Source: Alphaproteobacteria bacterium (GTDB lineage Bacteria > Pseudomonadota > Alphaproteobacteria > SHNJ01). From it: a DNA stretch of 64,000 nucleotides. The position numbers and the translations under genes are program-made. The notes beneath the pieces are model-generated. The model saw only the letters and a list, made by a program, of their open reading frames with translations. It was not told where the DNA came from and made no database searches. The DNA lies in assembly GCA_004295055.1 (NCBI GenBank), contig SHNJ01000031.1:72802-136801 (forward strand), in the 5' to 3' direction. Shown here piece by piece: positions 1 to 15,592 of this stretch. Positions within the stretch are counted from its first letter, which is position 1. Each line of letters starts with the position of its first letter.

Positions 1-1285
1 GCCGATGAAACTGGCCGCCGTGCAGGCGATTGCCGAACTCGCCCATGTGGAATCGTCCGATGTGGCCTCGCGCGCTTATGGCGATGCGGCGATGAGTTTT
101 GGCCGGGACTATATTATTCCAAAACCGTTCGATCCGCGCTTGATTTTGAAAATCGCGCCGGCGGTTGCCAAGGCCGCCATGGATTCCGGCGTGGCGACGC
201 GTCCGATCAAAGATTTCGAAGCCTATCATCAGGATCTAAGCCAATTCGTCTTCCGTTCCGGCCTGGTGATGAAACCGGTATTCGAAGCCGCGAAAGAAAA
301 TCCGCAGCGTATCGTTTATGCGGAAGGCGAGGATGAACGCGTGTTGCGCGCCATTCAAGTGGTGGTGGACGAAGGTTTGGCAAAACCAATCATCATTGGC
401 CGTCCGGACGTTATTAAGAAGCGTATTGAAAAATCCCGCTTGCGTATCAAAGCCGGCAAGGATTTTGAAATGGTCAATCCGGATTCTGATCCGCGCTTTG
501 CAGAATATTGGGGCCTGTATCACCGTTTGATGGAACGCCGCGGCATTTCTCCGGATCAAGCCAAGACCGTCGTTCGCACGCGGAACACTATTATTGCGGC
601 ATTGATGATCAAGCGTGGCGAGGCCGATGCTTTGATTTGCGGCACGTCTGGCAAATATCAGGTTCATTTGAACGATATTATGGACATTATCGGTTTGAAT
701 TATGATGTGCATGTGCCGTCCGCCCTGAATGTTTTGATTTTGACGCGCGGCATTTACTTTATGTGCGATACCTATGTTACCGATAACCCTACCGCGCATG
801 AAATTGCGGAAATGACCATTCAAGCGGCCGAAGCGGTCAGGCGTTTTGGCATTGAACCGAAAGTCGCCTTGCTGTCGCATTCCAATTTTGGCAGTTCCGA
901 GGCGCCATCGGCTCGCAAAATGCGCGAGGCATTGTCTTTGATTCACATGCGTGCGCCGTCCCTGGAAATCGAAGGCGAAATGCACGCCGATGCGGCGGTA
1001 AACGAAGAAATCCGCAACAGGATTTTCCCAAATTCCCGTTTAATGGGATCGGCGAATTTATTCGTCATGCCGACGCTGGATGCAGCCAATATTTCTTATA
1101 ATATACTGAAGGCGTTGGGTGACGGTTTGTCGATCGGCCCAATTTTGCTTGGCGTCGGTCAGCCGGCGCATGTGCTGACGCCGTCGGTTACTGTGCGCGG
1201 GATTGTCAATATGACAGCTATCGCAGCGGTCGAAGCCCACGGACAAGAAGGCACCAAGCAAAAAATTGTTCAATTAAAAAGCTAA
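1..1285 (+). CDS. maeB: NADP-dependent malic enzyme, C-terminal part (PTA-like domain); 5' truncated by window edge
   Basis: 426-aa ORF reads into the left edge. Sequence pattern is that of the malic-enzyme NAD-binding end followed by a phosphate-acetyltransferase-like domain (AYHQDL…GEDERVLRA…GTSGKYQVHL…). Confidence 0.75.
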   Translation, partial: PMKLAAVQAIAELAHVESSDVASRAYGDAAMSFGRDYIIPKPFDPRLILKIAPAVAKAAMDSGVATRPIKDFEAYHQDLSQFVFRSGLVMKPVFEAAKENPQRIVYAEGEDERVLRAIQVVVDEGLAKPIIIGRPDVIKKRIEKSRLRIKAGKDFEMVNPDSDPRFAEYWGLYHRLMERRGISPDQAKTVVRTRNTIIAALMIKRGEADALICGTSGKYQVHLNDIMDIIGLNYDVHVPSALNVLILTRGIYFMCDTYVTDNPTAHEIAEMTIQAAEAVRRFGIEPKVALLSHSNFGSSEAPSARKMREALSLIHMRAPSLEIEGEMHADAAVNEEIRNRIFPNSRLMGSANLFVMPTLDAANISYNILKALGDGLSIGPILLGVGQPAHVLTPSVTVRGIVNMTAIAAVEAHGQEGTKQKIVQLKS

Positions 1286-1309
1286 AGCCAACGGACTAAT
1301 GGCTTTATA

Positions 1310-2281
1310 TTACGGCGTTGGTTTCTTCCGCCGTCCTTCTTGCCATTCAAACAGCACTAAGAACACCGCGGCAATAGCCAATGGCCCCAGCAGATAAATT
1401 ATGCGGAACAACAGCAACGTGCCGAAAATAGTCGGCGCCGAATAATAATTGCCCAGCATCGTCAATACCACCCATTCAAAAACGCCAAGTCCGCCGGGAA
1501 CGTGCGACAGAATGCCGATAGTGGTGCCGATTACATAAATGAAAAAGAAATGCTGATATCCGATGATTTTCGAATCTGGCAACAGGACATATAAAATTGC
1601 CGATGCAACCGCGACATCGGTGACGGTTATTATTAATTGAAATATCGACAATGGCGCCGACGGCATCTTAAATTCAAAACCTTTGAATTGAATCGGATGC
1701 TTGCGATGTCCAACCCAAAATATATACCCCGTTACTATTGCCAGCGTTAGTCCGCCCAATATTTCACTCAGCAACGTTGGCATGAATTCGAACGGTTCCA
1801 AATAATAAGGGAAAAACGCCATCACGAATCCGAAAATGGCGGTTACGCCAATAGAATAGGTTAGAATGCAGAATGCGACGATTTTGGCAACATCGATAGG
1901 GCCAATGCCGCTGTGCCCATAAAGCCGCAATCGTACCGATCCGCCAGTGATCGGAGAAACGCCTAGATTCTGGCTAAAGGCAAATCCCATGAACGAAGCC
2001 ATGAAAATGCGTGGCCAAGGAACCTTTTTACGAACATAGAATAGGGCAGAAGCATCATAACCCGCTAAAACCACATAAGAGATCACGGTAAGCCCTATGG
2101 CCCACCAAACATGGGTGTGTGGGATTGCGGCGATGGCATCCAAAAAGTCCTGCCAGGAGTGCTTTTTAAGGGTTTTATGCAATAGCCAGCCCGCAGCCGA
2201 AAACAAGGCTATGGCCATTAAAGGCCAAAGCATTGAAATGACTTGTTTTGAAGGTTTTAAACGGGCAACCCAGGACATCAT
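1310..2281 (-). CDS. Polytopic membrane protein of the UPF0104 / lysyl-phosphatidylglycerol-synthase TM (flippase-like) family
   Basis: 323 aa with about 8 hydrophobic helices, a Gly-rich C-terminal helix pair and a KK-rich C-terminus, typical of the MprF N-terminal flippase-like domain. No fused synthase domain is present. Confidence 0.55.
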   Translation of the reverse strand: MMSWVARLKPSKQVISMLWPLMAIALFSAAGWLLHKTLKKHSWQDFLDAIAAIPHTHVWWAIGLTVISYVVLAGYDASALFYVRKKVPWPRIFMASFMGFAFSQNLGVSPITGGSVRLRLYGHSGIGPIDVAKIVAFCILTYSIGVTAIFGFVMAFFPYYLEPFEFMPTLLSEILGGLTLAIVTGYIFWVGHRKHPIQFKGFEFKMPSAPLSIFQLIITVTDVAVASAILYVLLPDSKIIGYQHFFFIYVIGTTIGILSHVPGGLGVFEWVVLTMLGNYYSAPTIFGTLLLFRIIYLLGPLAIAAVFLVLFEWQEGRRKKPTP

Positions 2282-2383
2282 AAAAACGGCAGTTTTTGTT
2301 AATATATTGTTAACGGTATTAGGAGCATTCTATAATCAGGGCAATAACTTAAATTATAATTATTCCCCTACCAGAGATAGTAT

Positions 2384-3556
2384 ATGGCACAAATTTATTC
2401 TACCCTAAACTTCAATCTTGGCGAAACTATCGACATGTTGCGGCAAACTGTGGCCGATTTCGCTGCCGATAAAATTGCACCGATTGCCGCCGAAACCGAT
2501 CACAGCAATGTTTTTCCCCGTCATCTATGGCCCGAATTTGGCGCGATGGGATTGCTTGGCATCACTGTGCCTGAACAATATGGCGGCGCTGGCATGGGAT
2601 ATCTGGCGCATGTGATTGCGATGGAAGAAATAAGCCGCGCTTCGGCGTCCATTGGTTTGTCTTATGGCGCGCATTCGAATTTATGCGTCAATCAAATCAA
2701 TTTAAACGGCAACGATGCGCAAAAGAAAAAATATTTGCCGAAATTAATTTCCGGCGAACATGTCGGCGCGCTCGCCATGTCCGAAGCCGGCAGCGGATCG
2801 GATGTTGTATCCATGCGCACGCGCGCGGATAAACGCGGCGACCGTTATGTTTTGAACGGCACCAAAATGTGGATCACCAACGGGCCGGATGCTGAAACAT
2901 TGGTTGTGTATGCTAAAACCGATCCCGATGCGGGATCAAAAGGAATTACCGCATTCCTGATTGAAAAAGGCATGAAAGGTTTTAGAACGGCGCAGAAACT
3001 GGATAAGCTTGGCATGCGCGGATCGAATACTTGCGAGCTGATTTTTGAAGATTGCGAAGTGCCGGCTGAAAATATTTTAGGCAAGCCGGGCGATGGCGTG
3101 CGCGTATTGATGAGCGGTCTGGATTATGAACGCGTGGTTCTGGCTGGCGGTCCGCTAGGCATTATGCGCGCTTGCATGGATGCGGTGATGCCTTACGTTA
3201 CCGAACGCCAGCAATTCGGCAAAAAAATCGGCGAGTTTCAATTGATGCAAGGCAAAATCGCCGACATGTATACCACCATGAATGCTTGCTGTTCTTATGT
3301 CTATACGGTTGCTTCCGCTTGCGATCGCAAGGAAACCACCCGCAAAGACGCGGCCGGTGTTATACTGTATGCAGCGGAAAAAGCGACCTGGATGGCGGGC
3401 GAGGCGATTCAATCGCTGGGCGGCAATGGATATATCAATGAATATCCCGTTGGCCGTTTGTGGCGGGATGCGAAGTTGTATGAAATCGGGGCGGGAACAT
3501 CGGAAATTCGCCGCATGCTTATTGGACGGGAGATGTTTCAAGAAGCGGCGGCCTAG
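2384..3556 (+). CDS. ivd: Isovaleryl-CoA dehydrogenase (acyl-CoA dehydrogenase family)
   Basis: 390 aa with ACAD motifs ([33 protein letters not shown]; C-terminal [12 protein letters not shown]). Leucine-catabolism gene context. Confidence 0.85.
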
Positions 3557-3564
3557 GAGGGTAT

Positions 3565-4119
3565 ATGAAAAAAGTAATATTGTGTTTAGCAATAGGAATA
3601 ATGACGGCATCCACCGCAAATGCGGAAAATGCGCGTCCGGTATGGAATACCGATTATTCCAATAATCAACCGCAAAGTTCGGATAAAGTGTACGTTGCCC
3701 CCGCGCCGATGGCGCCGGCGCCAACGCCTTATACGGTTCAGCATATTCCGCCAAACCAAGTTCGCAATTTTGCTCCGCGAGTTCAAGGCAGCGCCGATGC
3801 GGCCTGGGCAAGGCAATGGGGACCGATTCAGGAAATGACCGGCATCAATAGCGGTCAGGCCAAGCAATTCATTACTGGCGTCAAACAAGGATATGTCGAA
3901 GGCACCGCCAAAACCCTTAGCAGCGCGCAAGACTGGGCCTTGATCCTCGGTCAAAGCGGCCTGGTTGGAACGGTTACCGATTCTACGACTGACTGGTTTC
4001 ATTATGTTACATCGGATTTGCCAGGCGCTATTTATAAATATGATAATGGGGTAAACAACAATCTGATGGGCGGTTTATCCGGATTCGGCAATTATCCTGG
4101 CATGAAGATAGGGGAATAG
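3565..4119 (+). CDS. Secreted hypothetical protein with signal peptide
   Basis: Strong RBS (AGGAGGG) 7 nt upstream. N-terminal MKKVILCLAIGIMTASTANA signal peptide with A-x-A site. No recognisable domain. Confidence 0.6.
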   Translation: MKKVILCLAIGIMTASTANAENARPVWNTDYSNNQPQSSDKVYVAPAPMAPAPTPYTVQHIPPNQVRNFAPRVQGSADAAWARQWGPIQEMTGINSGQAKQFITGVKQGYVEGTAKTLSSAQDWALILGQSGLVGTVTDSTTDWFHYVTSDLPGAIYKYDNGVNNNLMGGLSGFGNYPGMKIGE

Positions 4120-4170
4120 CGTACACTTACCCTCGAGCTGTTTCGACCTATATTATATCTCGAGGTTTCC

Positions 4171-5352
4171 ATGTCAAAAAATATCTATATCGCCGGTGCG
4201 GCGCGTACCCCGATGGGTGGATTTCAAGGTGAATTATCATCGCTGACGGCACCGCAACTGGGCAGTTATGCTATCAAGGCGGCATTGGAACGTTCGGGCA
4301 TAAAATCAGATTCCATCAATGAAGTTCTTATGGGTTGCGTCTTGCCGGCAGGTTTAGGCCAGGCCCCCGCACGGCAAGCATCCATAGGTGCTGGGATTCC
4401 AATCGGTGTTGGATGCACGACAGTGAACAAAGTCTGTGGTTCGGGATTGAAATCGGTGATGCTGGGTTATGATTCGATTTTGGCGGGACATAACGAAGCG
4501 GTGATCGCAGGCGGCATGGAAAGCATGAGTAACGCGCCATATTTGTTGGAAAAAGCGCGCGGTGGATATCGCCTTGGCCATGGAAAAATTGCCGACAGCA
4601 TGTTTTTGGATGGGCTTGAAGATGCCTATGACCGCGGCCGTTTGATGGGCACATTCGCCGAGGATACGGCGCAGCATTATCAATTTACCCGCGCTCAACA
4701 GGATGAATTCGCGCTGCGATCATTAGACCGCGCGCGCAAAGCAGGTATGGACGGCAGTTTTTCCCGTGAGATTGTTTCGATTGTCATGGACAATAAGAAA
4801 GAAAAAATAACCATCAGTTCAGACGAACAGCCACGTAACGCTAAACCGGAAAAAATTCCGACATTGAAACCGGCTTTCCGCGATGGCGGCACGGTAACGG
4901 CGGCCAATTCCAGTTCCATTTCCGATGGGGCTGCCGCGGTAATTGTTTGCAGCGAAGCGCAAATGCAAAAGTCCGGAGCAAAGCCATTGGCGCGGATTGT
5001 CGCCCATGCGACGCATGCGCAAGAACCAGCCTGGTTTACAACCGCGCCGGTATTTGCCATTAAAAAAGTCGCCGAAAAAGCCGGGTGGAATTTAAAAGAC
5101 GTGGATTTGTTTGAAATTAACGAGGCGTTTGCCGTCGTTACCATGGCCGCGCAACATGAATTGAATTTACCTAATGAAAAGGTCAATATTCGTGGCGGCG
5201 CTTGCGCAATGGGCCATCCGATCGGCGCTTCCGGCGCGCGCGTGTTGGTGACACTAATTCATGCGTTGCAAGATATGAAATTGAAACGTGGTATTGCCAG
5301 CCTGTGCATTGGCGGCGGTGAAGCCGTCGCGATGGCCATAGAAACTATTTAG
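4171..5352 (+). CDS. atoB: Acetyl-CoA C-acetyltransferase (thiolase II)
   Basis: 393 aa with thiolase motifs (VNKVCGSGLKSV active-site Cys; C-terminal NIRGGACAMGHPIGASGARVL…CIGGGEAVAMAIE). Confidence 0.85.
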   Translation: MSKNIYIAGAARTPMGGFQGELSSLTAPQLGSYAIKAALERSGIKSDSINEVLMGCVLPAGLGQAPARQASIGAGIPIGVGCTTVNKVCGSGLKSVMLGYDSILAGHNEAVIAGGMESMSNAPYLLEKARGGYRLGHGKIADSMFLDGLEDAYDRGRLMGTFAEDTAQHYQFTRAQQDEFALRSLDRARKAGMDGSFSREIVSIVMDNKKEKITISSDEQPRNAKPEKIPTLKPAFRDGGTVTAANSSSISDGAAAVIVCSEAQMQKSGAKPLARIVAHATHAQEPAWFTTAPVFAIKKVAEKAGWNLKDVDLFEINEAFAVVTMAAQHELNLPNEKVNIRGGACAMGHPIGASGARVLVTLIHALQDMKLKRGIASLCIGGGEAVAMAIETI

Positions 5353-7148
5353 TCTGCCGGGTGTCCTATTTCAGACGCATTTTCAGTGCAATCTGTCTGT
5401 GGTCCGTTTTTCTGCGCAGTTTCGCATACAATTGTACCATCTGCTGGTGCTGATACTACGTCTTGTCCAGCCGGCAATCCAACAGGAGTGTATGTAGTTG
5501 GTCCTGGATCAACAGAAACTATAGTTTTTGCCGCTGGATCCCAATTGTAAGCCCAATTGGCATGATAATTGGCTAGACCGTGCACGCCAGTGTGTAATAA
5601 TTCAGGATATGTCTGGCTGCAATCTGCAGAATTATTAAGCAAAGTTACAGCCGCATCCGTTTTGCAGTTGGCTGAACTGCGTTCCGGATAAGTGTAAGTA
5701 CGGTCCCGCGCTTGCTGCGAGTTCGATGATAAATAGCAGTAAAATTGATTGGTATTTGGGGAATAGCCTACCACTTGGTGGGCTAACGGTCCGTCACCGT
5801 TGGCCAGAGAGCATGACTCTTCCCATCTGCCATAGGTAGTATCGTTCGCATTCACGCCTTCACAGACGAAAGTGTTGCTGGTCGCGGTTGTTGCGTCCCA
5901 AACAATCTTTTTACCTTCAGGGCATGGCGTTGGGCCGTTTGATGGATTTGGCGGTCTGGAATTTAACAATGTCCACCCACCGGCGCAAATTAGACTGCCA
6001 TCCCGCAATATGATCACGCCTTTACTGCGCGTACCGGGAAAATATGGATGATTATCATAATAACGTTGTGGGCATTCAAAATTGGCTAAACGAGTCATAA
6101 TATCATTCGGTAAAGCCGGATTTGGCCAGGTGCCGTCGGCCGCTACCGGAGAGACCGCATCGTAATATTCATCTACCGCGTACATCGATACGATTTGCCG
6201 GTTTACGTTGTCATAGGTCTCTGTGTTGACTTTTGCTTCGCGAATTTCGATGTCGGCACAGCTCATCCCGTTATTGATAGTTCCATCATTATTGGTGCCG
6301 CGCGAATTCAGGGCGGTTCCAACGGTACAATTTTGAGTTTCATTGCTGCCTGGCGCGGCGGCCAATCCCAGAACATTTCTTTCGCAACGGAACCGGGCTG
6401 GCAAAGTTTCCGCGGTATTGCCATCGCCGTCCTCATCGTTGACATCCACAGCTTGAGGTTTGAATATCATTTCTTCGCCGGCAGGACAGGCGCTTTCGCT
6501 AAGCGTGGTATTTTCCGTTTGCGAACTGCGGATCCATTTCAATGCCTGTGCCGGCGTTACATTGATGTATTTGCTGTTATCGCTTGTTACGCCAGCAGCG
6601 GCAGCGCTGCAAGTCATCATATGATCAGGATATTTGTTTAGAATAAGGGTAAATAATATCGGCGGATTGGCGGGTGCTGGAATATACCCATTTGTGCTGC
6701 TATAGCCGGCTTCTACCGGATAATATGGACAATAACGCATATATCTACGCAAGCTATCTGGCCGCAGTGGGGCCATTTGACGCAAGTTTCTCGGCAATTT
6801 ACCGCCATAAGCATAGGTAGGATTATTGCCTTCCAAAAGAGGAGTGGTAATAGTCGCATCGGAAGTAGTATCGCTGTTATCAGGAAATACGGCTGCAATT
6901 GGATGCACTCTCCCGGTGCTGCGGATATTGTCGCTGGAGGCCCGCGCAATGCTAGAAGCCAATACATTCAACAATGTGTCGTCGGTTATTTTCTCAGCAG
7001 ATTGGCGATTATCTTTTAATGCATTAATGTTCGGCGTAAAGATAGCAGCATTGGCCAGCATGATTAGAACGATAAAAAGCAATAAATGCGATACCATCCC
7101 GCGCTGGCGATTTTGAATGTTATGATATGGTTTCATTCTAAATCTCAT
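5349..7148 (-). CDS. Large cysteine-rich secreted or membrane-anchored protein with prepilin-like leader (no Glu+5)
   Basis: 599 aa. N-terminus is a basic leader ending in QRG|M followed by about 20 hydrophobic residues. About 25 Cys and many N-x-T/S. Third gene of a tightly packed three-gene minus-strand array. Confidence 0.55.
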   Translation of the reverse strand: MRFRMKPYHNIQNRQRGMVSHLLLFIVLIMLANAAIFTPNINALKDNRQSAEKITDDTLLNVLASSIARASSDNIRSTGRVHPIAAVFPDNSDTTSDATITTPLLEGNNPTYAYGGKLPRNLRQMAPLRPDSLRRYMRYCPYYPVEAGYSSTNGYIPAPANPPILFTLILNKYPDHMMTCSAAAAGVTSDNSKYINVTPAQALKWIRSSQTENTTLSESACPAGEEMIFKPQAVDVNDEDGDGNTAETLPARFRCERNVLGLAAAPGSNETQNCTVGTALNSRGTNNDGTINNGMSCADIEIREAKVNTETYDNVNRQIVSMYAVDEYYDAVSPVAADGTWPNPALPNDIMTRLANFECPQRYYDNHPYFPGTRSKGVIILRDGSLICAGGWTLLNSRPPNPSNGPTPCPEGKKIVWDATTATSNTFVCEGVNANDTTYGRWEESCSLANGDGPLAHQVVGYSPNTNQFYCYLSSNSQQARDRTYTYPERSSANCKTDAAVTLLNNSADCSQTYPELLHTGVHGLANYHANWAYNWDPAAKTIVSVDPGPTTYTPVGLPAGQDVVSAPADGTIVCETAQKNGPQTDCTENASEIGHPAD

Positions 7149-7152
7149 TCAT

Positions 7153-8694
7153 TTAATCCACTGCTGTGCATGTAAACCGCGGATTCGGATTTGCATCTTT
7201 TATGAAAGTTAACGAACCTCTTTTGCCGTTAATCGGCGGACATGTATTCGCCGGCATGGCAAAACGAAGCGCTTCAAATATATTGATGCATTGTACCAAT
7301 CTGCGATCGTCCACCCGGGCTTGCATGACATTGTTCACGGGGCATCCGTCACTTGTGCTGTAATGCACGGCGGCATCTTCTGCAAACCCGCCGGCCAGCA
7401 CTGGGTCGTTTAAAATGTAACAGCCAAATCCGCCCATGCTGGAAACAAAGCCGACGTCGAATCCCGCTTTGCATACTCTTAATCCGCCAGCTTGCGCATC
7501 TTCCGGACAGAATGTGCGGCCACTGGCGTAGTATGGCGTAATTCCACCGTTGCAAGCTGTGCGCGCTCCGGGGCCGCCATTTCTTGCCAGGTTGGTATTA
7601 TTGAATGGATAACAAGAAGTATAGCGCGATAGCGCCACTGCGAGCCAATTTCCAGCAGAGCAGGTGCTTAGAACCACATTTTCCGGTATGCCGTTGCATA
7701 TCCTTTGTGTTCCCGTCCAGCGGAATGTTTCGATATGATTGGTGCAAGGAGCGGCAGCGGCCATATCGCCGTCAATTAAAGAGGCAATAGCGCCATTTTC
7801 GTCGAAAATCAATCCAAAGTCGGAACGGGCGCGTGGCGCCACGGTAGAAACGCAGGCCAGTTCTTGATACTCATGTTCTGCATCGCCCTCATGCACCAAT
7901 CGCAATGTCAAGGCGGTGCCTTGTGGGCAAGTAGGTATATTTTCCGCGGCGCTGTCGGATTTCAGGAAAAATGCTGGAATAGTGCTTTCCACGCATTCCC
8001 AATTTTTCTGATCGATATTCCATTGTAAATTTGTAAGTTTACGATCTCTGCCCGTTCCTGTAATTCCGCATGTTGGAATGTTCCCGGCGTTTTCGATAAG
8101 ATTTTTGTAAGCATCCCTGTTAACGTCTCTAACGGTTTTAAAAATACCGATATCGTCGCCTCGGGTAATGCCTTGCATAACATCGTTCTTATTGGTGTCT
8201 ATTTGTCCGTCCGCACCGGGAAGAATCATGGCAAAAGACATTTCGTCCGGATTTGGAATGCCGCCTGCGCCAGACAAGTAATAACCGGCCGGAGCATTAT
8301 CCGTGCTTCGCGGCATATGGATGAAAGCGAAATAAGCAACTTCGCCGAATTTGGTGTTGGCGGAGAATCCAGTCGGCAGTTTGCCACCCCACTCTGGATT
8401 TGGCACATCTCCGTCCTGCATCGATCTGCCGCCGGCAGTCGCCGACATCGCCGGCGCCACTTTCATGACGCCTTGTTGATCCAGATTTGATTCCGCAATA
8501 ATACTGGCCAGTTGTTGTAACTTGTTCCGGGCTTGCACGTTTCTTTGCTGATCGATTAGCTTGTCAAAAATGCCGACATAGCTTCCCGCTAATGTAATGG
8601 CGGCCGCGCTGGCCAGCATGCCGAACAGGACCGGCGCGGCTAAGAAGCCTCTCTGGCTGTTTTTTCTGCGAAATATGGTAAACAGTTTCATCAT
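7153..8694 (-). CDS. Large cysteine-rich secreted or membrane-anchored protein with prepilin-like leader; paralog-like of its two neighbours
   Basis: 513 aa. Leader MMKLFTIFRRKNSQRG|FLAAPVLFGMLASAAAITLAG. Cys/Gly/Asn-rich. 4-nt gap to the downstream gene. Confidence 0.55.
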   Translation of the reverse strand: MMKLFTIFRRKNSQRGFLAAPVLFGMLASAAAITLAGSYVGIFDKLIDQQRNVQARNKLQQLASIIAESNLDQQGVMKVAPAMSATAGGRSMQDGDVPNPEWGGKLPTGFSANTKFGEVAYFAFIHMPRSTDNAPAGYYLSGAGGIPNPDEMSFAMILPGADGQIDTNKNDVMQGITRGDDIGIFKTVRDVNRDAYKNLIENAGNIPTCGITGTGRDRKLTNLQWNIDQKNWECVESTIPAFFLKSDSAAENIPTCPQGTALTLRLVHEGDAEHEYQELACVSTVAPRARSDFGLIFDENGAIASLIDGDMAAAAPCTNHIETFRWTGTQRICNGIPENVVLSTCSAGNWLAVALSRYTSCYPFNNTNLARNGGPGARTACNGGITPYYASGRTFCPEDAQAGGLRVCKAGFDVGFVSSMGGFGCYILNDPVLAGGFAEDAAVHYSTSDGCPVNNVMQARVDDRRLVQCINIFEALRFAMPANTCPPINGKRGSLTFIKDANPNPRFTCTAVD

Positions 8695-8705
8695 GTTCTT
8701 TTCAT

Positions 8706-10238
8706 TTACCTATATATACATTTAAATTTCTTGTTGGTTTCATCCCAACTGACCATTTGGTGTCCGTTGCAAGAACTGCTGGGCGTAACTCTTGTCAATA
8801 ATTCAAACCTATCCAGGCATACATAATTGGTGCCGTCGTGCATGATAAAATCACCCGCTCTGCAAGATGTACGGGTATCGCTATATGGAATGATCCAATT
8901 GCGCGGTTCTTGAGTGTTATTGCTTTCCAAACATTGCGTATTGTTAGTAACCGTCTGGAATTCCAATATTTGATTTGGCTGGCAGGTTTGCTTGACCTCG
9001 AAACTTAAGTTCCCGGCAAAACAGAATAATTTTCCGCGATCGAATACGATGTATGGCCGTCCGGAACAATTGCTGCCGCTTAATAAGCTGCTTGGCATGC
9101 CGAGGCAACGCAAGGTGCCATCGCGGCTTTGGTACAAGGCTTTGAATTGTCCGCCGGATGCTTGGAAATCGCAGCTGCTTGCCAACAGCGGAATGGATAA
9201 GCTTACGCTTGGCGGACCAATTTCATCGCCATACGAAGAAAGACGATCACACCGGAAACTGTAATTGTCGTTGGCCACGCTCGATAACGCGCCAATGGCG
9301 TACCCGCGATAACAGATGCCGGCGGCCAAACGGCCCATATTGATATTCTCCGGCACTTGATTGGCCAATTGATCGACAACCCGGCAACCTAAAGTGCCAT
9401 CGGCATTCAAAGCCAGGCGTTGTGAATCCAAACAGCGGCGTAAACCATGCGAAGAATAATCCTGATTCACAAAATTCATGTAATTGTCGCGGCAGTTCCA
9501 GCTATGCTCTCCGGTGGCATTGCCATCGCCATCCTGCACATTGGTGTATTCCAAAGTTTGCAAGGCCGTACAGGTCGGAACGCCGTTATGCAACAAAGCG
9601 CGGCGATTGGCATTGGCGTGTTCCAACACTTCGCCGTATTTGATAAGTCTAATTTGGTCGTCGCTGCCGTTCACGGGGGTTTCATTCAAAGCATAATTGC
9701 AGGTATACTCAGGCGTACCGTTTTGTCCGTAACTGATAATTGCAAATACAGATTGTTTCATAAGCAGCGTTGTATTAGCTTGAACCTCGCGCCGTCCATT
9801 AGCAACATATGGTGGTACTATATCTTGAAGATTGATAGAACAAATTCGGAAGTCTCTACCGTAAGCATCCTTTCCGATGGTATCTCGCAAATCTACTTCT
9901 TGATTGTTAATAGTTGTCAATAGAGGTTCTATAAAACCCATAGCAGATTGTTCCCACTGCTGCGTATCACCTTCTGGATTAGGTTGAGTTTTGGTGTAAT
10001 ACATGCGCGGCAATTCAAGATAACGATCCCCATCAATATTGCTAATCTTGTTAGCAAGAATATATTCCGCTAATCGGTCTATGTTCTTTTTGGTATTTAA
10101 ATCGCTTTGTGTGGTGCCTACTTTCTGCGCAAGGCCAGCGGTCAGCGTGATCAGCGTGCCCAGCATCGCGACCGACGCGACAAGAGTGGCGATATATGCC
10201 CCGCCAATAAAGCCAGATTGTGATTTAAAAATTTGCAC
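8706..10238 (-). CDS. Large cysteine-rich secreted or membrane-anchored protein with prepilin-like leader; first gene of the array
   Basis: 510 aa. Leader MQIFKSQSG|FIGGAYIATLVASVAMLGTLITL. AT-rich promoter-like region upstream (10239-10518). Confidence 0.55.
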   Translation of the reverse strand: MQIFKSQSGFIGGAYIATLVASVAMLGTLITLTAGLAQKVGTTQSDLNTKKNIDRLAEYILANKISNIDGDRYLELPRMYYTKTQPNPEGDTQQWEQSAMGFIEPLLTTINNQEVDLRDTIGKDAYGRDFRICSINLQDIVPPYVANGRREVQANTTLLMKQSVFAIISYGQNGTPEYTCNYALNETPVNGSDDQIRLIKYGEVLEHANANRRALLHNGVPTCTALQTLEYTNVQDGDGNATGEHSWNCRDNYMNFVNQDYSSHGLRRCLDSQRLALNADGTLGCRVVDQLANQVPENINMGRLAAGICYRGYAIGALSSVANDNYSFRCDRLSSYGDEIGPPSVSLSIPLLASSCDFQASGGQFKALYQSRDGTLRCLGMPSSLLSGSNCSGRPYIVFDRGKLFCFAGNLSFEVKQTCQPNQILEFQTVTNNTQCLESNNTQEPRNWIIPYSDTRTSCRAGDFIMHDGTNYVCLDRFELLTRVTPSSSCNGHQMVSWDETNKKFKCIYR

Positions 10239-10518
10239 CGTTTACAACCCTCGCTCATCCCAAAAAATTAAAGTGGGTTGAACAAAACCTTTTTCCCCAT
10301 CCTCTTATTGTTACTCAGTATGGTTAAGCGGCAGTAAACATCGGATAAAAATATTAGTAATTAAATTACAATATATTGATTTAATGTTATTATTTATTGT
10401 AATTGTAGTACTAAGGTATGAAAAAGCATATCTTGTCTGTTTTTTGGCCAAAAGCGGACTTGTGTTTAAAAGCCGTTTTGGCTAAACATATATCTATAGA
10501 ATTCTAAGGGAGAGAGAA

Positions 10519-11139
10519 ATGGCGCAAGCAAATTTTGGATTAACCGCTGTTGCAGCTATGGGCGCGGTAACGGCTTTTGGTATTGTGCCAGCCAACGCGG
10601 ATATTTGGCTGCATCAGGGTACCAATAACACTAGTTTTGCCACATCGGAAATGATGACAGGAAATGTTACTGGTGTTCAAGTAAATATATCGGGGGACAA
10701 TTTGTGGGCATTTACGGCTCGTGCAACAAGTCAGTATATTACTGTTACCTCTGGTTTTTCAAACCAACCAGGTATGTTTGCAGGGTTTGACATGTTTAGT
10801 AATCCATTACCAGTAGGTTCTGGTTATAATGACGTGGATCAAACAGGCATAAATATGACTATGAATATTGGTGCTCAGAATGTTGGTCAACTAATTACCC
10901 TAGTTTTTGCTAATTATGGTATGGTTCCACTCAGCAATGGATCGGATTTGTATGACGTTGGAAGCTCTGGACAAATTAATCCATTGTTTATGGGTGCATG
11001 GAATGGCACAGGGGGTCAGAATCAATTTGGCGTCGAAACTCGCGTATACGAAATTACTGGCATTACCGGTGTTCCAGCTCCGGGTGTGTTGACCTTGGCT
11101 ATGGCTGGCGGTTTATTGGCCGCGCGTCGCCGCCGCTAA
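10519..11139 (+). CDS. Secreted protein with PEP-CTERM-like C-terminal sorting tail
   Basis: RBS GGGAGAGAGAAATG. Signal peptide …GIVPANA|D. C-terminus GVPAPGVLTLAMAGGLLAARRRR is a P-x-P, hydrophobic helix, Arg-cluster arrangement. Paralog of 11365-11985. Confidence 0.65.
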   Translation: MAQANFGLTAVAAMGAVTAFGIVPANADIWLHQGTNNTSFATSEMMTGNVTGVQVNISGDNLWAFTARATSQYITVTSGFSNQPGMFAGFDMFSNPLPVGSGYNDVDQTGINMTMNIGAQNVGQLITLVFANYGMVPLSNGSDLYDVGSSGQINPLFMGAWNGTGGQNQFGVETRVYEITGITGVPAPGVLTLAMAGGLLAARRRR

Positions 11140-11164
11140 TCGATAAAGATCAAATTTTGATTCA

Positions 11165-11195
11165 AAAGGCCTGGGTGAAACCCAGGCCTTTTTAT
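11165..11195 (+). terminator. Rho-independent terminator
   Basis: GGCCTGGG-TGAAA-CCCAGGCC hairpin followed by TTTTTAT. Confidence 0.7.
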
Positions 11196-11364
11196 ATGTG
11201 CGCACGAATAATTAATACTATCGTATGATTATAATATAATTATACTAATATGAAATAAAATTAGCAATATAATTGCAAGGATGGCTAAGAATCATTTTGC
11301 CAACCAAATGGTAAGTGGATTATAAATGCTTACTTCAAAAACTACTTTTTTCGTGGAGAGAAAA

Positions 11365-11985
11365 ATGGTCCGAGCAAATTTTGGAATGATTGCCGCCTTT
11401 ACCGCGGCCACCGCTTTCGGCACACAAGCGAATGCAGATATTTGGGAACAACATGGCAGCGACAACACCGCTTTTGCGACATCGGAAAGAATGACCGGCC
11501 GCGAAATTGACGGAATTGAGTACAGTGTTACTGGCGATAATTTATTTGCCTTTACTGGCGTTGCAAATAGTCGATTTATTACCATTATTTCCCCTGCATC
11601 TAACCAGCCTGGTATTGTGTATGTCCTGGACAAAGATGGAAAACCATTTCCAGTAGGTTCAGGTTATAATGACATTACACAAGAGGGCGTCGATATGATT
11701 ATCGATATTGGCGATGCCAATGTCGGTAAAGAAATCACTTTCGTATTTGGTAATTACGGCACGTTGGCGCAAAATGGCGAAACTCCGCTTTTTAATGATT
11801 ACGAATGCGGCCAAATCGATCCAGATGTGGTTGCGACATGGACTCTGACTGGTGGTCAAAATCAATTTGGTTCCGAAACTCGTGTTTGTTTCTTCGGCGA
11901 GGGAGAAGTTCGCGGTGTGCCAAAAGTAAGCACCACGACGGCGACGGCAGCAGCAAGAGCCAGAGCCACGCGCTGTTGCGACTAA
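11365..11985 (+). CDS. Secreted paralog of 10519-11139 with degenerate (Thr/Ala-rich) C-terminal tail
   Basis: Start moved to MVRANFG… (RBS GGAGAGAAAAATG, matching its paralog). Shared blocks are ANFG…TAFG…ANADIW, PVGSGYND and TGGQNQFG.ETRV. C-terminus is VPKVSTTTATAAARARATRCCD. Confidence 0.6.
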   Translation: MVRANFGMIAAFTAATAFGTQANADIWEQHGSDNTAFATSERMTGREIDGIEYSVTGDNLFAFTGVANSRFITIISPASNQPGIVYVLDKDGKPFPVGSGYNDITQEGVDMIIDIGDANVGKEITFVFGNYGTLAQNGETPLFNDYECGQIDPDVVATWTLTGGQNQFGSETRVCFFGEGEVRGVPKVSTTTATAAARARATRCCD

Positions 11986-12000
11986 CAATTAGATAGAATA

Positions 12001-12034
12001 AAAAAAGCCCGGTTTAATCCGGGCTTTTTTATTG
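12001..12034. terminator. Bidirectional rho-independent terminator
   Basis: AAAAAAA-GCCCGG-TTTAAT-CCGGGC-TTTTTTATT. It lies between two convergent genes (11365-11985 on + and 12048-12428 on -). Confidence 0.75.
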
Positions 12035-12047
12035 GGAGTATTTAACC

Positions 12048-12428
12048 TTAGCTTTCATAATTATCATTCGCGAACATGGCGGCGACGCCCGCACCGAAAT
12101 GATTTTCGATGCGGTAATATTGAATTTCCCGGTCGTTAAAATAATTTTGTTTTTTTAGCAAATTTTGCAGCAACGATTGCTTGCGGCGGTATTCGCGGTA
12201 CGCCTTGGCGATCAGGCGCGGGATCGCCTCGGAAATATCGACGATGTTTTTCGCGCCGAATCCCGCAACCGGCATTTCCGCTTGCCACATTCTGTAATGC
12301 CGCAAAGTTTGCAACATCCAATACCGCAGCAATTGAATCTCAGCGCGCATGGCGCAAATCAGCATTTTTGTCTGGCGCGGATTGGCGGGTACAAAATAAA
12401 AACCCGGCCCGGCGAATTCTTGGTTCAT
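12048..12428 (-). CDS. Small protein of unknown function; paralog A of 14172-14540
   Basis: 126 aa with RBS AGGGAGAGC. The C-terminal 43 aa and about 150 nt are near-identical to 14172-14540 (…[47 protein letters not shown]). Transcribed divergently from an XRE regulator. Confidence 0.6.
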   Translation of the reverse strand: MNQEFAGPGFYFVPANPRQTKMLICAMRAEIQLLRYWMLQTLRHYRMWQAEMPVAGFGAKNIVDISEAIPRLIAKAYREYRRKQSLLQNLLKKQNYFNDREIQYYRIENHFGAGVAAMFANDNYES

Positions 12429-12606
12429 AAAAAGCTCTCCCTAAATATTAATTTTTGTTGGTTACGAGGGGTAAAATAGGCCTAAATGGTTAATGAATGG
12501 TTAATTTATAGATAGAAATCATAAAAAATATTACTAATATTCATTTTTTTTATGATTTATCTTGATAATGGGATTCAGGCCTTCTAAAACAAAGCAGGGT
12601 AAGACT
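12429..12606. promoter_or_regulatory. Divergent AT-rich promoter region with GGTTAAT direct repeats (candidate operator)
   Basis: TGGTTAATGAATGGTTAAT at 12487-12505 lies between divergent genes. An analogous GGTTAAT…GTTAAT is in the paralogous region 14754-14772. Confidence 0.35.
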
Positions 12607-13251
12607 ATGACTTTGGATGCTTCTCAAATCCGCGCCGCACGCGCCTTGTTGGACTGGACAATCGAAGATTTGGCCAAAATTACCGGCTTGAGCAAGGATT
12701 CCATCAAAAATGTAGAGCGTGGGCATACTCAACCCCGTATAAATACCCGAATTGTTATAGAAGAAGCTTTTGAAAAAGCAGGCATCGAATTTTTGCCGGG
12801 TTCTGGCGTGCGCAAGAAAAATAATTTAATAACGACCTTAACCGGCGAATACGCCAATCGGCAATTGCTGGATGATGTGTATGCAACCCTTGTGGCTCGG
12901 GAAAATGCGTGTGTCTATATTACCGGCGTCAAGGAAACACAAAGCATCGATAGTGTGGATTATGAATATTTGGAAAAACATATTCAACGCTTATTGAAAG
13001 CGAATATTAAAGAAAAATTGATTGTTGAAGAAGGCGATTCCACTTTTATAGCGCCTTCATACAGCTATCGGTGGATAGCAGAACAATATTTTGAGAATGT
13101 ACCCATCCAAGTTTATGGCGATAAAATCGCCTTTGTGGATTGGGGGCCGCCGGAGCAAATCGTTATCATTCAAAACAAAGGATTTGCCATGGCTATGCAG
13201 AAACTGCTGGATTTCGCATGGCAAAACTGCGCCGTGCCTAAAGGCTTGTAA
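12607..13251 (+). CDS. XRE-family helix-turn-helix transcriptional regulator with uncharacterised C-terminal domain
   Basis: Start set to MTLDASQIRAARALLDWTIEDLAKITGLSKDSIKNVERG (HTH). Same length as, and colinear with, paralog 14937-15584 (conserved EEGD…YRW…VY.DK.A). Confidence 0.6.
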   Translation: MTLDASQIRAARALLDWTIEDLAKITGLSKDSIKNVERGHTQPRINTRIVIEEAFEKAGIEFLPGSGVRKKNNLITTLTGEYANRQLLDDVYATLVARENACVYITGVKETQSIDSVDYEYLEKHIQRLLKANIKEKLIVEEGDSTFIAPSYSYRWIAEQYFENVPIQVYGDKIAFVDWGPPEQIVIIQNKGFAMAMQKLLDFAWQNCAVPKGL

Positions 13252-13252
13252 A

Positions 13253-14119
13253 ATGATGCATATATCCGGAAAGCTAAAGCAAATCGTATCCTTAGGGCCA
13301 GAAAATTTCGACTTTCTGAAAGCGGCCAATAACAACGACAGTTATCAATTGTCGCCTACATATTATTTGTTTACCGGAAGAAAAGGTTTATGGGTGTTGG
13401 AACAGGATGGGCAAGCGGCTTTAATTGCTAAGCATCCTAACTTAGAAGACGAATTGTTGGTATTTTATCCTAATGGATATTGCCCAAATCTAGAGCATCA
13501 AGTTTTACATCATGTTCCGCGTAACAGCCGATTAAAAGCTGCAAGACTAGCCGTTTGCGCAAATTCTAATCTCAATGCAGTTATGGATGAGGAACTATTC
13601 TTAGATTGGCGTTACCCAGTCTGCATACTGGATACTGCGTATGTTGGAAAACTGCGCGGCAGGTTATTAGAGGATGTAAAGAACAATTATAATAGAGCCG
13701 CTAGAACGATTTGTAGAATTGAGGCTTACAATCCGGCTGCGCATAAAGATCGCATGAGAGAATTGATTCAACAATGGCATCGCCCGGAAGCGCATGATGG
13801 ATATGAAGGGCTATTAAATATTATGGAACGAATGCCGGGAAATTTCGGCTTAATCGCTCTAACAGAAGAATCTATCGCGGGGTTTATTCACTGGGAAATG
13901 CCATGGAAACCGGGGAGTCCGGCTAATTCTCTGGCCTTGATTGTTGACAAAAGCATTAAAGGATTAAGCGAATTTATGATGGTGGAAATGTGCCGCGCGT
14001 TGGTGCAGACCGGATGCCTTGCTGTCAATATAGGTGGGTCTGAAACCGAAAGCCTTCATTATTTTAAAAGCAAATTTAATCCAAAAATGGTGGATCTGCG
14101 TAATTATAATTATGCTTAA
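13253..14119 (+). CDS. Stand-alone DUF2156 / phosphatidylglycerol-lysyltransferase C-terminal-like (FemXAB/GNAT-fold) protein; putative aminoacyl-tRNA-dependent transferase
   Basis: Start re-set to the ATG 1 nt after the regulator stop (MMHISGKLKQ…); the track's 13091 start overlaps the regulator. C-terminal signature …GSETESLHYFKSKFNPKMVDL matches the FK.KF.P motif that ends MprF C-domains. Confidence 0.5.
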   Translation: MMHISGKLKQIVSLGPENFDFLKAANNNDSYQLSPTYYLFTGRKGLWVLEQDGQAALIAKHPNLEDELLVFYPNGYCPNLEHQVLHHVPRNSRLKAARLAVCANSNLNAVMDEELFLDWRYPVCILDTAYVGKLRGRLLEDVKNNYNRAARTICRIEAYNPAAHKDRMRELIQQWHRPEAHDGYEGLLNIMERMPGNFGLIALTEESIAGFIHWEMPWKPGSPANSLALIVDKSIKGLSEFMMVEMCRALVQTGCLAVNIGGSETESLHYFKSKFNPKMVDLRNYNYA

Positions 14120-14171
14120 AGATTAATACTTTTTAAGTAGTACAATGCGCGGCGAGGCAGCTAATATGGCG

Positions 14172-14540
14172 TTAGGCATAATTATCGTTCGCGAACATGG
14201 CGGCGACGCCCGCGCCGAAATGATTTTCGATGCGGTAATATTGAATTTCCCGGTCGTTAAAATAATTTTGTTTTTTTAGCAAATTCTGCAACAACGATTG
14301 CTTGCGGCGGTATTCGCGCAACGATTGGTTGATCAATCCCTGCACTTTGCTTTGCATATTGGCGATTTTTTTTGCCGGCAATGCGCCGTCATTGTTCATT
14401 TCCGCGCGCCAGGATTTATAATTCTGCAAAGTTTGCAGCATCCAATAACGTAGCAAGCGGATTTCCGCTTCCATCGCCTCGGCTAAATTTTGACTTTTGC
14501 CTTTGGTGTTGGCATTGGTTTTATTTTGTTGTGCTGGCAT
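14172..14540 (-). CDS. Small protein of unknown function; paralog B of 12048-12428
   Basis: 122 aa with RBS AAGGGAG. C-terminus identical to paralog A. Preceded on the same strand by a 47-aa ORF. Confidence 0.6.
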   Translation of the reverse strand: MPAQQNKTNANTKGKSQNLAEAMEAEIRLLRYWMLQTLQNYKSWRAEMNNDGALPAKKIANMQSKVQGLINQSLREYRRKQSLLQNLLKKQNYFNDREIQYYRIENHFGAGVAAMFANDNYA

Positions 14541-14560
14541 ATCTCGCTCCCTTAACTCCG

Positions 14561-14704
14561 TTAGGCCGCTTTTTGTACTTTGCGCATTTCTTCAACTACG
14601 TTCAGCGCAAAATAGGGGCCATATTTAATTTCCAAATACTCATAAATTTCTTCTTCGCTCATCATCGCGTAATTTGGTTTGGTATTTTGATTCGCGTAAT
14701 CCAT
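14561..14704 (-). CDS. Small ORF (47 aa) not in the supplied track: MDYANQNTKPNYAMMSEEEIYEYLEIKYGPYFALNVVEEMRKVQKAA
   Basis: Read by hand on the minus strand. ATG at 14704, stop TAA at 14561-14563. It ends 20 nt before the RBS and ATG of 14172-14540, an operon-like spacing. Acidic/aromatic, no signal peptide. Confidence 0.35.
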   Translation of the reverse strand: MDYANQNTKPNYAMMSEEEIYEYLEIKYGPYFALNVVEEMRKVQKAA

Positions 14705-14710
14705 CTCTAG

Positions 14711-14936
14711 TCCCTTAGTTCCCGTTGTTGGCAACGAGAGAATAGGATCATAAGGTTAATCAAAAGTTAATTCAATAGAAAAAATATCTAATAACGATAT
14801 ATTTTATGCCTTTTATAGATGGTATTATACACAAATTATTGATATATAATGATAATATTCCATCCAGAAAAATAAAAAATGACGATATTTTTTATATGTT
14901 CTTGCAATATGTTTTATATCTTGTTATGCAGAAAAC
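14711..14936. promoter_or_regulatory. Divergent AT-rich promoter region with GGTTAAT-N6-GTTAAT repeat (candidate operator)
   Basis: GGTTAATCAAAAGTTAATT at 14754-14772. Same position relative to the regulator gene as in cassette 1. Confidence 0.35.
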
Positions 14937-15584
14937 ATGATAGACGCCAAACAAATACGCGCCGCGCGCGCTTTGCTGAATTGGTCGCGGGAGGAGCTGG
15001 CCGAACAAACGGGGATTTCCGTCCCCGCGCTTGCTCGCGCCGAAACGGGCGAATCGCAATTGCGCACGACTAGCGCCGAGAAAATCAAATCATCGTTGGA
15101 GCAGGCGGGTGTAATTTTTACGGATGGCAGTGGTGTGAAGCTCAAAACGGATTTGGTACAAATTTATGAAGGTGAAAATTGCTATCTAAAATTGCTGGAA
15201 GATTTTGAAGACCTGAATGTTAAAGGAGAAAAAGAAATTCTGTTCAGTTCTGCTTCTGAAAAAAGATCAACGGATGAGGTTATTGAGAAAACGCGTCTTC
15301 TAAGAAAAAAAGGCATTAAGATGCGCTTTCTTTTGGAGGAAGGCGACACATACATAATGGGTGACCTTTCAGAATATAGATGGATGCATAAAAGTTTATT
15401 TTCCAAGGGTGACGTAAAGCTAGTGTATGCGGATAAAGTCGCTTATTTGGTTAGTTGGATGGAAACACCTCGTGTTGTAGTTGTTTCTGAGAAAAACATT
15501 GCTGAAGAAAATCGAAGAGCGTTTGAATTTATTTGGAATATATCGAAGAAACCGACGCACAGCGATGCGGACATTTCATATTGA
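14937..15584 (+). CDS. XRE-family HTH transcriptional regulator; paralog of 12607-13251
   Basis: MIDAKQIRAARALLNWSREELAEQTGISVPALARAETG HTH. C-terminal domain colinear with its paralog. Confidence 0.6.
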   Translation: MIDAKQIRAARALLNWSREELAEQTGISVPALARAETGESQLRTTSAEKIKSSLEQAGVIFTDGSGVKLKTDLVQIYEGENCYLKLLEDFEDLNVKGEKEILFSSASEKRSTDEVIEKTRLLRKKGIKMRFLLEEGDTYIMGDLSEYRWMHKSLFSKGDVKLVYADKVAYLVSWMETPRVVVVSEKNIAEENRRAFEFIWNISKKPTHSDADISY

Positions 15585-15592
15585 GGCGCAGA

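Follow-up and report, generated by a model that had tools for sequence, protein, structure and literature searches.

Three co-encoded cysteine-rich proteins with prepilin-like N termini lacking Glu5 in an uncultured alphaproteobacterium, and their relatives in type IV filament operons

We analyzed a 64-kb stretch of DNA (here called the window) from an uncultured Alphaproteobacteria bacterium, in which an initial annotation had pointed out an array of three large cysteine-rich proteins with N termini resembling those of prepilins. The interval reported for it, from 5349 to 10238, consists of exactly three open reading frames (ORFs), all on the minus strand, which we named A, B, and C in gene order. 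Gene A (8706 to 10238; EYC62_07995) comes first, begins with GTG, and encodes 510 amino acids (aa). Gene B (7153 to 8694; EYC62_07990) follows with 513 aa, and the third, gene C (5349 to 7148; EYC62_07985), encodes 599 aa, or 595 aa from the start used by NCBI at Met5. The three products are identical to hypothetical proteins of a metagenome-assembled genome labelled "Alphaproteobacteria bacterium" at NCBI. Since spacers of just 11 nt (A to B) and 4 nt (B to C) separate the genes, they are likely cotranscribed, and the operon-like layout with gaps of 4 to 11 nt described earlier holds. No long ORF competes with the trio on the opposite strand. At the distal end, the stop codon of C overlaps that of a convergent thiolase gene (4171 to 5352) by 4 nt (5349 to 5352), which leaves no terminator between the two converging transcripts. 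On the other side, an AT-rich intergenic region of 280 nt (10239 to 10518), the presumed promoter region, separates A from a divergent gene for a PEP-CTERM-like protein. This region contains one σ70-like match (10424 to 10396, minus strand); in a scan for promoters and terminators, the counts were not above those of shuffled sequence.

Each of the three proteins begins with a short hydrophilic leader that ends in glycine. The leader of A is MQIFKSQSG (9 aa; 10212 to 10238, minus strand), that of B is MMKLFTIFRRKNSQRG (16 aa; 8647 to 8694, minus strand), and that of C is MRFRMKPYHNIQNRQRG (17 aa; 7098 to 7148, minus strand). K or R is present in all three, and the final Gly is invariant in all members of the A, B, and C families. 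The junction reads SQSG|F, LQRG|F, or TNAG|F in six of six A orthologues. Gly16 and Phe17 of B are invariant among 10 family members at 30 to 69% identity, and all five C orthologues have M or V after [QE]-[RS]-G. The Gly is followed by an uncharged run of 27 to 29 residues; the first charged residue is located at mature position 28 to 30 and the first acidic one at 28 to 37. Position +5 is occupied by A, P, or L. With no acidic residue before mature position 28, the N termini and their lack of Glu5 were as the initial annotation had described them. A class III signal is defined as a hydrophilic leader with Gly or Ala as its last residue and about 21 hydrophobic residues that form the start of a helix of about 50 residues (PMC8179133). 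Both the leader and the hydrophobic stretch are present in the trio, and a helix of this length is predicted by AlphaFold2 for B. A regular-expression search of the window for the leader-G-[F/M]-hydrophobic start singled out A, B, and C, the other matches being internal membrane helices.

The hydrophobic region of a typical Sec signal peptide is about half as long as the uncharged stretch of 27 to 29 residues seen here. Moreover, the leader end QRG|F or QSG|F is the tetrapeptide that precedes the "TLIE" core in pseudopilins of the GspG, PulG, and XcpT type. Past this stretch, each protein has a candidate signal peptidase I (SPase I) motif with small residues at positions -3 and -1 (A, GLA|Q; B, TLA|G; C, ANA|A). 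In alignments read by eye, these candidate sites vary among orthologues while the Gly-Phe pair stays; TLA|G of B, for instance, is replaced by YTA|W in P0016 to P0018. The invariant Gly-F/M, the long uncharged stretch, and the single long helix predicted by the model are arguments for N termini that are class III-like rather than Sec-type. The junction is conserved far beyond the need of a Sec signal peptide, which supports the prepilin-type layout without Glu5 that had been proposed for these proteins.

Downstream of the leader, A, B, and C have in common an N-terminal module that ends near residue 205 and consists of the hydrophobic stretch, an amphipathic continuation, and a globular part of about 150 residues. 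In A (residues 10 to about 205; 9624 to 10211, minus strand), 29 uncharged residues and an amphipathic helix precede a globular part with the pair Cys133-Cys180. The module of C (residues 18 to about 205; 6534 to 7097, minus strand) has the corresponding pair Cys140-Cys180, which is lost in B. The B module (residues 17 to about 205; 8080 to 8646, minus strand) is supported by an AlphaFold2 model and by the match to the filament-operon protein P0021 described below. The alignment of the modules revealed the motifs GG-x-L-P, a strand ending in F-x-[YI]-C, FA[LI]I-x-G-x-[DN]G-x(3)-T-x-C, and GDD. Using hhalign, we obtained probabilities of 87% for A against B and of 92% for B against C, the latter being 82% when the hydrophobic segment was left out. 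The direct match between A and C was not significant. Direct homology of A and C was rejected on this basis, and we accept their relationship only through B and the filament-operon family. The mutual paralogy raised in the initial annotation was thus recovered by profile-profile comparison for the first 200 residues or so, with A and C linked only through a third family.

To model the module, we ran AlphaFold2 on residues 1 to 240 of B with an alignment of 16 sequences (mean predicted local distance difference test score [pLDDT], 76.4; predicted template modelling score, 0.65). The model has one helix at residues 19 to 68 (mature positions 3 to 52; pLDDT, 60 to 88), followed by strands at 120 to 125, 152 to 158, and 182 to 187. 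A Foldseek search of the PDB with this model gave nothing below an E value of 3, and no solved pilin was matched. The structural check suggested for a pilin-like fold therefore returned a predicted helix of about 50 residues and β strands, yet no significant match to solved pilins. Profile searches of PDB sequences with the B family and with the N-terminal module produced chance matches only (E > 0.2).

When the B profile was run in a full HMMER scan of 1.84 billion representative proteins, 11 proteins were retrieved. The weakest match in this library was P0021 (219 aa), which aligned over B residues 13 to 198 with an E value of 1e-6. P0021 is encoded by a distal gene in a row of overlapping, same-strand genes on the metagenomic contig L011. 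Encoded in this row are a secretin (PF00263; best NCBIfam model, MshL), an ATPase of 629 aa (T2SSE; E = 1.7e-67), and a platform protein (T2SSF), along with several small membrane proteins and the products of pilin-like genes. The best-scoring models for the ATPase are GspE and PilB, at scores far below the respective cut-offs. P0021 starts with RNRQGG|FAQTIAIVAIG, and two genes past it lies a gene for a 767-aa protein that starts with ...SQRG|FAAATVL and has 18 further Cys residues. When plasmids were searched by tblastn for relatives of the 767-aa protein, a single one turned up, on NC_007901.1, a conjugative plasmid of 257 kb from Rhodoferax ferrireducens T118. A similar operon on this plasmid encodes two secretins, an ATPase with an MshE-like cyclic di-GMP motif, a platform protein, and three small proteins starting with ...KQAG|FMNAL, ...HQKG|FINAL, and ...KQKG|FMLAY. 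It ends in a gene for a 1,049-aa hypothetical protein with the same module, after which a "tail fiber assembly protein" gene follows. The 1,049-aa protein has an ordinary Sec-type signal (MSLKKTALALCVASAAALVGSPTLA), and there is no room for an upstream start; the globular module can thus be used without a pilin-type helix. The leader-G|F-hydrophobic start is present in two of the three filament-operon homologues.

We compared the modules of A, B, and C with this filament-operon family by hhalign and obtained probabilities of 96.6%, 97.8%, and 90.5%, respectively, over the full module. Without the first 28 hydrophobic residues, the values were 96.6% for A (E = 5.5e-10), 97.5% for B (E = 6e-12), and 89% for C (E = 2e-6). 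As the probabilities hold without the hydrophobic residues, the match is independent of membrane-helix composition. The homology between the module and the filament-operon proteins, as judged from these profiles, is the main new evidence for placing the trio in type IV filament biology. The genes of L011 and Rhodoferax (RFER_RS22280 to RFER_RS22295) resemble the trio in the globular module of about 150 residues with the motifs GG-x-[LI]-P, F-[GR]-[YI]-C, FA[LI]I-x-G-x-[DN]G-x(3)-T-x-C, and GDD. Most of them also share the [QK]-x-G|F leader without Glu5 and a terminal Cys-bracketed hairpin. They differ in standing directly behind secretin, ATPase, and platform genes and in their C-terminal parts. 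The pilin-like proteins of Rhodoferax had no match in profile searches of PDB sequences.

The two operons deserve a description of their own. Both are divergent filament operons on mobile elements, at 1967 to 13469 of L011 and at 647 to 15054 of NC_007901.1 (L018). Their MshL-like secretins, GspE/PilB-like ATPases, and GspF-like platform proteins all score far below the curated cut-offs. Nearly all of their pilin-like genes have the leader-[QK]xG|F-hydrophobic start without Glu5. None is recognized by Pfam or NCBIfam, apart from one subthreshold hint of PilS (PF08805; E = 0.06). The 1,049-aa protein of Rhodoferax carries tail-fiber-like repeats.

The remaining two thirds of A, B, and C, up to the C terminus, are made up of seven or eight loops, each closed by two consecutive Cys residues 12 to 34 residues apart. 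The initial annotation had noted that all three proteins end in a short Cys-bracketed loop; this is the case, and such loops extend through the whole of this region. In A, eight hairpin modules run from Cys223 to Cys507 (8718 to 9572, minus strand), with consecutive Cys pairs spaced by 15 to 26 residues. The eight modules of B, from Cys209 to Cys509 (7168 to 8070, minus strand), are supported by Cys conservation and AlphaFold2, and the seven loops of C, from Cys221 to Cys587 (5388 to 6488, minus strand), by the Cys pattern. A, B, and C contain 18, 16, and 16 Cys residues, respectively (2.7 to 3.5%), and each of the 15 orthologues examined has an even number; of the 16 Cys residues of B, 13 are invariant in the family. 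When full-length B was modelled with AlphaFold2, a strand-turn-strand unit was predicted between the two Cys residues of every consecutive pair but one, Cys317-Cys333 (seven of eight pairs). The overall confidence of this model is low (pLDDT, 58), with residues 310 to 430 reaching about 72 to 89. A Foldseek search of the PDB and BFVD with the full-length model gave no match at E < 0.001, and all TM-scores were below 0.15. Opening and closing Cys residues also differ in context: a hydrophobic residue stands at position -2 of 17 of 23 closing Cys residues versus 2 of 23 opening ones (Fisher P = 1.3e-5), and x-x-G follows about half of the opening ones. Even Cys counts, predicted strand-turn-strand units, and the distinct contexts of odd and even Cys residues fit an oxidizing, exported location. 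The richness in N-x-S/T sequons that had been attributed to these proteins did not go beyond composition (observed versus expected: A, 10 versus 5.5 [P = 0.03]; B, 1 versus 3.8; C, 7 versus 7.5).

Relatives of the trio are rare. A word-seeded search of 5.8 billion proteins returned three or four proteins per gene, with the query's own entry included. The A orthologues are 48 to 63% identical, and among the matches found, the A-B-C family is confined to uncultured Alphaproteobacteria. The full trio is present at seven loci (L001 to L004 and L008 to L010); L014, at a contig end, has A and a truncated B, and L015 has B and C only. Wherever the flanks are visible (L001, L003, L004, L008 to L010, and L014), the trio stands inside a leucine-catabolism cluster of isovaleryl-CoA dehydrogenase, thiolase, and methylcrotonyl-CoA carboxylase genes. 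We considered a functional tie between the trio and these genes and rejected it; the trio is simply inserted between them clade-wide. Where thiolase and dehydrogenase are 94 to 95% identical, the trio is 64 to 69% identical, and where they are 69 to 88% identical, it is 27 to 35% identical. Judged by these identities, the divergence of the trio is fast, as would be expected for exposed proteins.

Usually, one or two genes for small secreted proteins lie divergently upstream of the trio. In the window, these are two paralogues (10519 to 11139 and 11326 to 11985, both plus strand). At the end of the first is VPAPGVLTLAMAGGLLAARRRR, which resembles a PEP-CTERM sorting tail, and the protein weakly matches the C terminus of the exosortase-dependent protein XDP1 (E = 0.018); the tail of the second is degenerate. 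Small genes of similar size are located divergently upstream of the trio in L002, L003, L004, and L008, and the one relative that was read, from L008, has a similar signal peptide and C-terminal tail. These small PEP-CTERM-like proteins may be functionally linked to the trio. A further small gene (3565 to 4119, plus strand), between those for isovaleryl-CoA dehydrogenase and thiolase, encodes a protein of 184 aa that has a signal peptide and matches no family. A gene of similar size is found at this position in all syntenic loci that cover it (L001, L003, L004, and L008 to L010), with two in L001, and the four counterparts compared are 44 to 84% identical.

Genes for a secretin, ATPase, platform protein, or prepilin peptidase were found neither in the 64-kb window nor in the 10 kb beyond its right end nor in about eight syntenic loci. 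Within the window, we used tblastn with the secretin, ATPase, and platform proteins of L011 together with Pfam searches of about 30 ORFs, which yielded housekeeping genes only. No prepilin peptidase gene was present in the 64 kb plus 10 kb read of the 270-kb contig, and genes for CpaF/T2SSE, TadB/C, and secretins were lacking from the window and the syntenic loci alike. The statement that no pilus assembly genes are nearby is therefore correct for the window and the next 10 kb to its right, as well as for all syntenic loci inspected. Machinery genes, absent around the trio, accompany the distant homologues, namely, P0021, the 767-aa protein of L011, and RFER_RS22280 of Rhodoferax. Minor-pilin operons are often unlinked from the machinery they serve, and the lack of linked genes thus weakens a pilin reading of the trio and does not refute it.

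Compared with known systems, the trio can be set beside the minor-pilin tip complexes of type II secretion systems (T2SS) and type IVa pili, which are capped by proteins of the GspK/PilK(PilX) family (PMC10191384, PMC8179133, PMC13533445); the capping subunit lacks Glu5 (PMC10191384). Like these caps, A, B, and C have a leader ending in Gly, then M, F, or V and a hydrophobic helix without Glu5, and they are larger than ordinary pilins. GspK is also one of three co-encoded tip-complex subunits, those of the GspI-J-K trimer, and the trio likewise comprises three co-encoded genes. There are clear differences. GspK has the T2SSK domain (PF03934), for which A, B, and C have no match; its extra mass is an inserted α-domain, whereas that of the trio is a C-terminal hairpin array; and the trio lacks linked machinery. 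At 510 to 599 aa, the three proteins are also well above GspK in size. In known tip complexes, only the capping subunit is without Glu5 and the I and J subunits carry it, while all three members of the trio are without. The likeness to GspK/PilX drawn in the initial annotation thus stands as an analogy only, with no match to T2SSK, N_methyl, or any other pilin hidden Markov model (HMM).

Tad pili of alphaproteobacteria have at their tip CpaL/TadG, a minor-pilin-like protein of about 600 residues (PMC13533445; 10.1101/2025.02.12.637803). CpaL/TadG and the trio are alike in size (about 600 residues versus 510 to 599 aa), in combining a pilin-like N-terminal module with a large non-pilin region, and in their alphaproteobacterial hosts. 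CpaL has a von Willebrand factor A (vWA)-like domain and a G/A-X4-E/F site, neither of which is found in A, B, or C, and the trio is paralogous and cysteine rich. We detected no match to Tad (PF13400), TadE/F (PF07811), or vWA models at E < 1 and no tad/cpa locus nearby. CofB is a trimeric tip pilin, and CofB/TcpB and PilB/PilC of Streptococcus sanguinis are located at the tip with roles in adhesion or initiation (PMC6048534, PMC8179133, PMC5207764). In these proteins a pilin module is followed by β-rich or adhesive modules, as in the layout proposed for the trio, but their extra modules (β-repeat or β-sandwich, vWA, and lectin) are unlike Cys-stapled hairpins. The class III signal of CofB/TcpB and PilB/PilC is canonical, Glu5 included; these proteins match IPR012902, and their genes lie in the pilus operon. 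Under the definition of modular pilins (PMC8179133), the extra modules of the trio are clear (seven or eight Cys hairpins), and its pilin module is recognized by remote homology and prediction, not by models of the IPR012902 type. Tip adhesins of the PilY1 type are not pilins themselves and are comparable to the globular module of Rhodoferax without a pilin helix. Overall, the layout of A, B, and C is nearest to that of tip-located modular minor pilins, and it is Glu5 and the HMM signature of the type IV pilin N-terminal cleavage and methylation site (IPR012902/PF07963/TIGR02532) that they lack for formal membership. By sequence, the trio belongs to neither GspK nor TadG, whose defining domains are missing, and its nearest relatives are unannotated.

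We favor, with moderate confidence, the interpretation that A, B, and C are minor-pilin-like proteins of modular build, all three without Glu5, and that together they make up a tip or adhesin complex serving a filament machine whose genes lie elsewhere. According to this model, the three proteins would be translated from one transcript, and each would be inserted in the inner membrane by its hydrophobic N terminus, with the leader in the cytoplasm and the bulk in the periplasm. A prepilin peptidase would trim the leader after the invariant Gly, and the Cys pairs would be oxidized in the periplasm. Through their N-terminal helices and pilin-like modules, the three proteins might then assemble into a heterotrimer that primes or caps a type IV filament; the genes for the machine and the major pilin of this filament would lie at another place in the genome. 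The hairpin stalks, which evolve fast, would point outward as a ligand-binding surface. We infer the cleavage by a peptidase, the formation of a trimer, its location at the tip, and a role in adhesion; by analogy, the GspI-J-K/PilI-J-K trimer, CpaL/TadG, CofB, and PilB/PilC provide precedents. The idea of unusually large minor-pilin-like proteins put forward in the initial annotation thus gained N-terminal modules homologous to filament-operon proteins and found no backing from pilin HMMs or from Foldseek matches to pilins. Several observations weigh against our interpretation. None of the three proteins matches any Pfam or NCBIfam model even at E < 1, N_methyl, T2SSK, TadE, and Tad among them. 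To these are added the low confidence of the full-length B model, the lack of a solved pilin among structural matches, the absence of linked machinery, the loss of Glu5 in all three partners rather than in the capping one, and the Sec-type signal of the Rhodoferax homologue. Moreover, the filament-operon relatives are themselves uncharacterized hypothetical proteins.

Several of these points can also be read as signs that the trio consists of cysteine-rich proteins of the envelope or surface, anchored in the membrane or secreted by Sec, that have no part in a filament, an explanation that we consider possible and rather unlikely. The N terminus would then act as an uncleaved signal anchor or as an SPase I signal, for which GLA|Q, TLA|G, and ANA|A could be the sites, and the module shared with filament-operon proteins would stem from a periplasmic domain of common ancestry and say nothing of a function as a pilin. 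No assembly genes are near the trio in any genome seen, and its conserved divergent neighbor is a PEP-CTERM-like surface protein, which is in keeping with such a role. This explanation sits poorly with a G-F/M pair at the leader boundary that is invariant at about 30% identity when the putative SPase I motifs are not conserved, with an uncharged stretch of 27 to 29 residues predicted to be continuous in a 50-residue helix, and with the same start in two of the three filament-operon homologues. It is improbable that the trio represents tip proteins of the TadG/CpaL type, belonging to a Tad (type IVc) pilus but encoded away from the tad/cpa locus. Tad is the usual filament type in alphaproteobacteria, and the size and layout of CpaL agree with those of the trio, but the Tad, TadE, and vWA models did not match, the G/A-X4-E/F motif of CpaA substrates is absent, and the machinery next to the homologues is of the GspE/PilB, GspF, and MshL type, not CpaF/TadBC. 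A tblastn search with B of 72,556 plasmids, some of which carry tad loci, likewise found no match. That the ORFs are spurious or decaying and without function would agree with the lack of family annotation and the very few database relatives. We give this a negligible chance, as intact syntenic orthologues are found in at least eight assemblies, down to about 27% identity, with invariant Cys and Gly residues and motifs, and the other strand has no long competing ORFs.

Our preferred interpretation of the trio as a tip complex could be extended to the operons of L011 and Rhodoferax. Their likely major pilins have the leader-[QK]xG|F start with L, A, or P at +5. Together, the trio and these operons might represent an undescribed type IV filament branch with no Glu5 in any of its pilin-like subunits, likely major pilins included. 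A-B-C would then be a chromosomal, machinery-unlinked, heterotrimeric tip complex, and its stalks a new fold of tandem disulfide-stapled β-hairpins. We regard this extension as unlikely. Glu5 has been stated to be absolutely conserved in bacterial type IV pili (PMC10710030), and a branch entirely without it, if real, would conflict with that statement.

Elsewhere in the window, a cassette is present in two copies. The first copy comprises ORFs at 12048 to 12428 (minus strand), 12562 to 13251 (plus strand), and 13091 to 14119 (plus strand), and the second comprises ORFs at 14172 to 14540 (minus strand), 14937 to 15584 (plus strand), and 15533 to 16309 (plus strand). Each has a gene for a protein of 122 to 126 aa, with a shared C terminus, divergent from a gene for an XRE/HTH_3-type regulator (Pfam assignment tested for the first copy), which is followed by an enzyme gene. 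The enzyme is LPG_synthase_C-like in one copy and a cyclodipeptide synthase in the other, and relatives have a Methyltransf_33 gene instead. The cyclodipeptide synthase ORF (15533 to 16309; 258 aa) matches the tRNA-dependent family TIGR04539, with 62 bits versus a cut-off of 45, and is located in a low-GC stretch (0.40 to 0.42 versus about 0.49) at about 10 to 16 kb. Three further ORFs of 719, 775, and 509 aa (18887 to 21046, minus strand; 28509 to 30836, plus strand; and 44015 to 45544, plus strand) lie amid housekeeping genes and have no Pfam match and no obvious signal peptide.

If A, B, and C are envelope proteins outside any filament, they would simply be lineage-specific, modestly interesting proteins from an uncultured clade. 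If instead they are pilin-like, an N-terminal module that current pilin models do not detect would widen the range of modular tip proteins, Glu5 would have been lost completely in all partners of a complex, and a disulfide-stapled hairpin stalk not seen in solved structures would be added to the extra modules of such proteins. Motif tools that need Glu5 would reject A, B, and C, and annotation pipelines with the same requirement would miss such proteins altogether. The unannotated filament operons on mobile elements, with their Glu5-less pilins, would offer a test of how far assembly depends on the Glu5 salt bridge.

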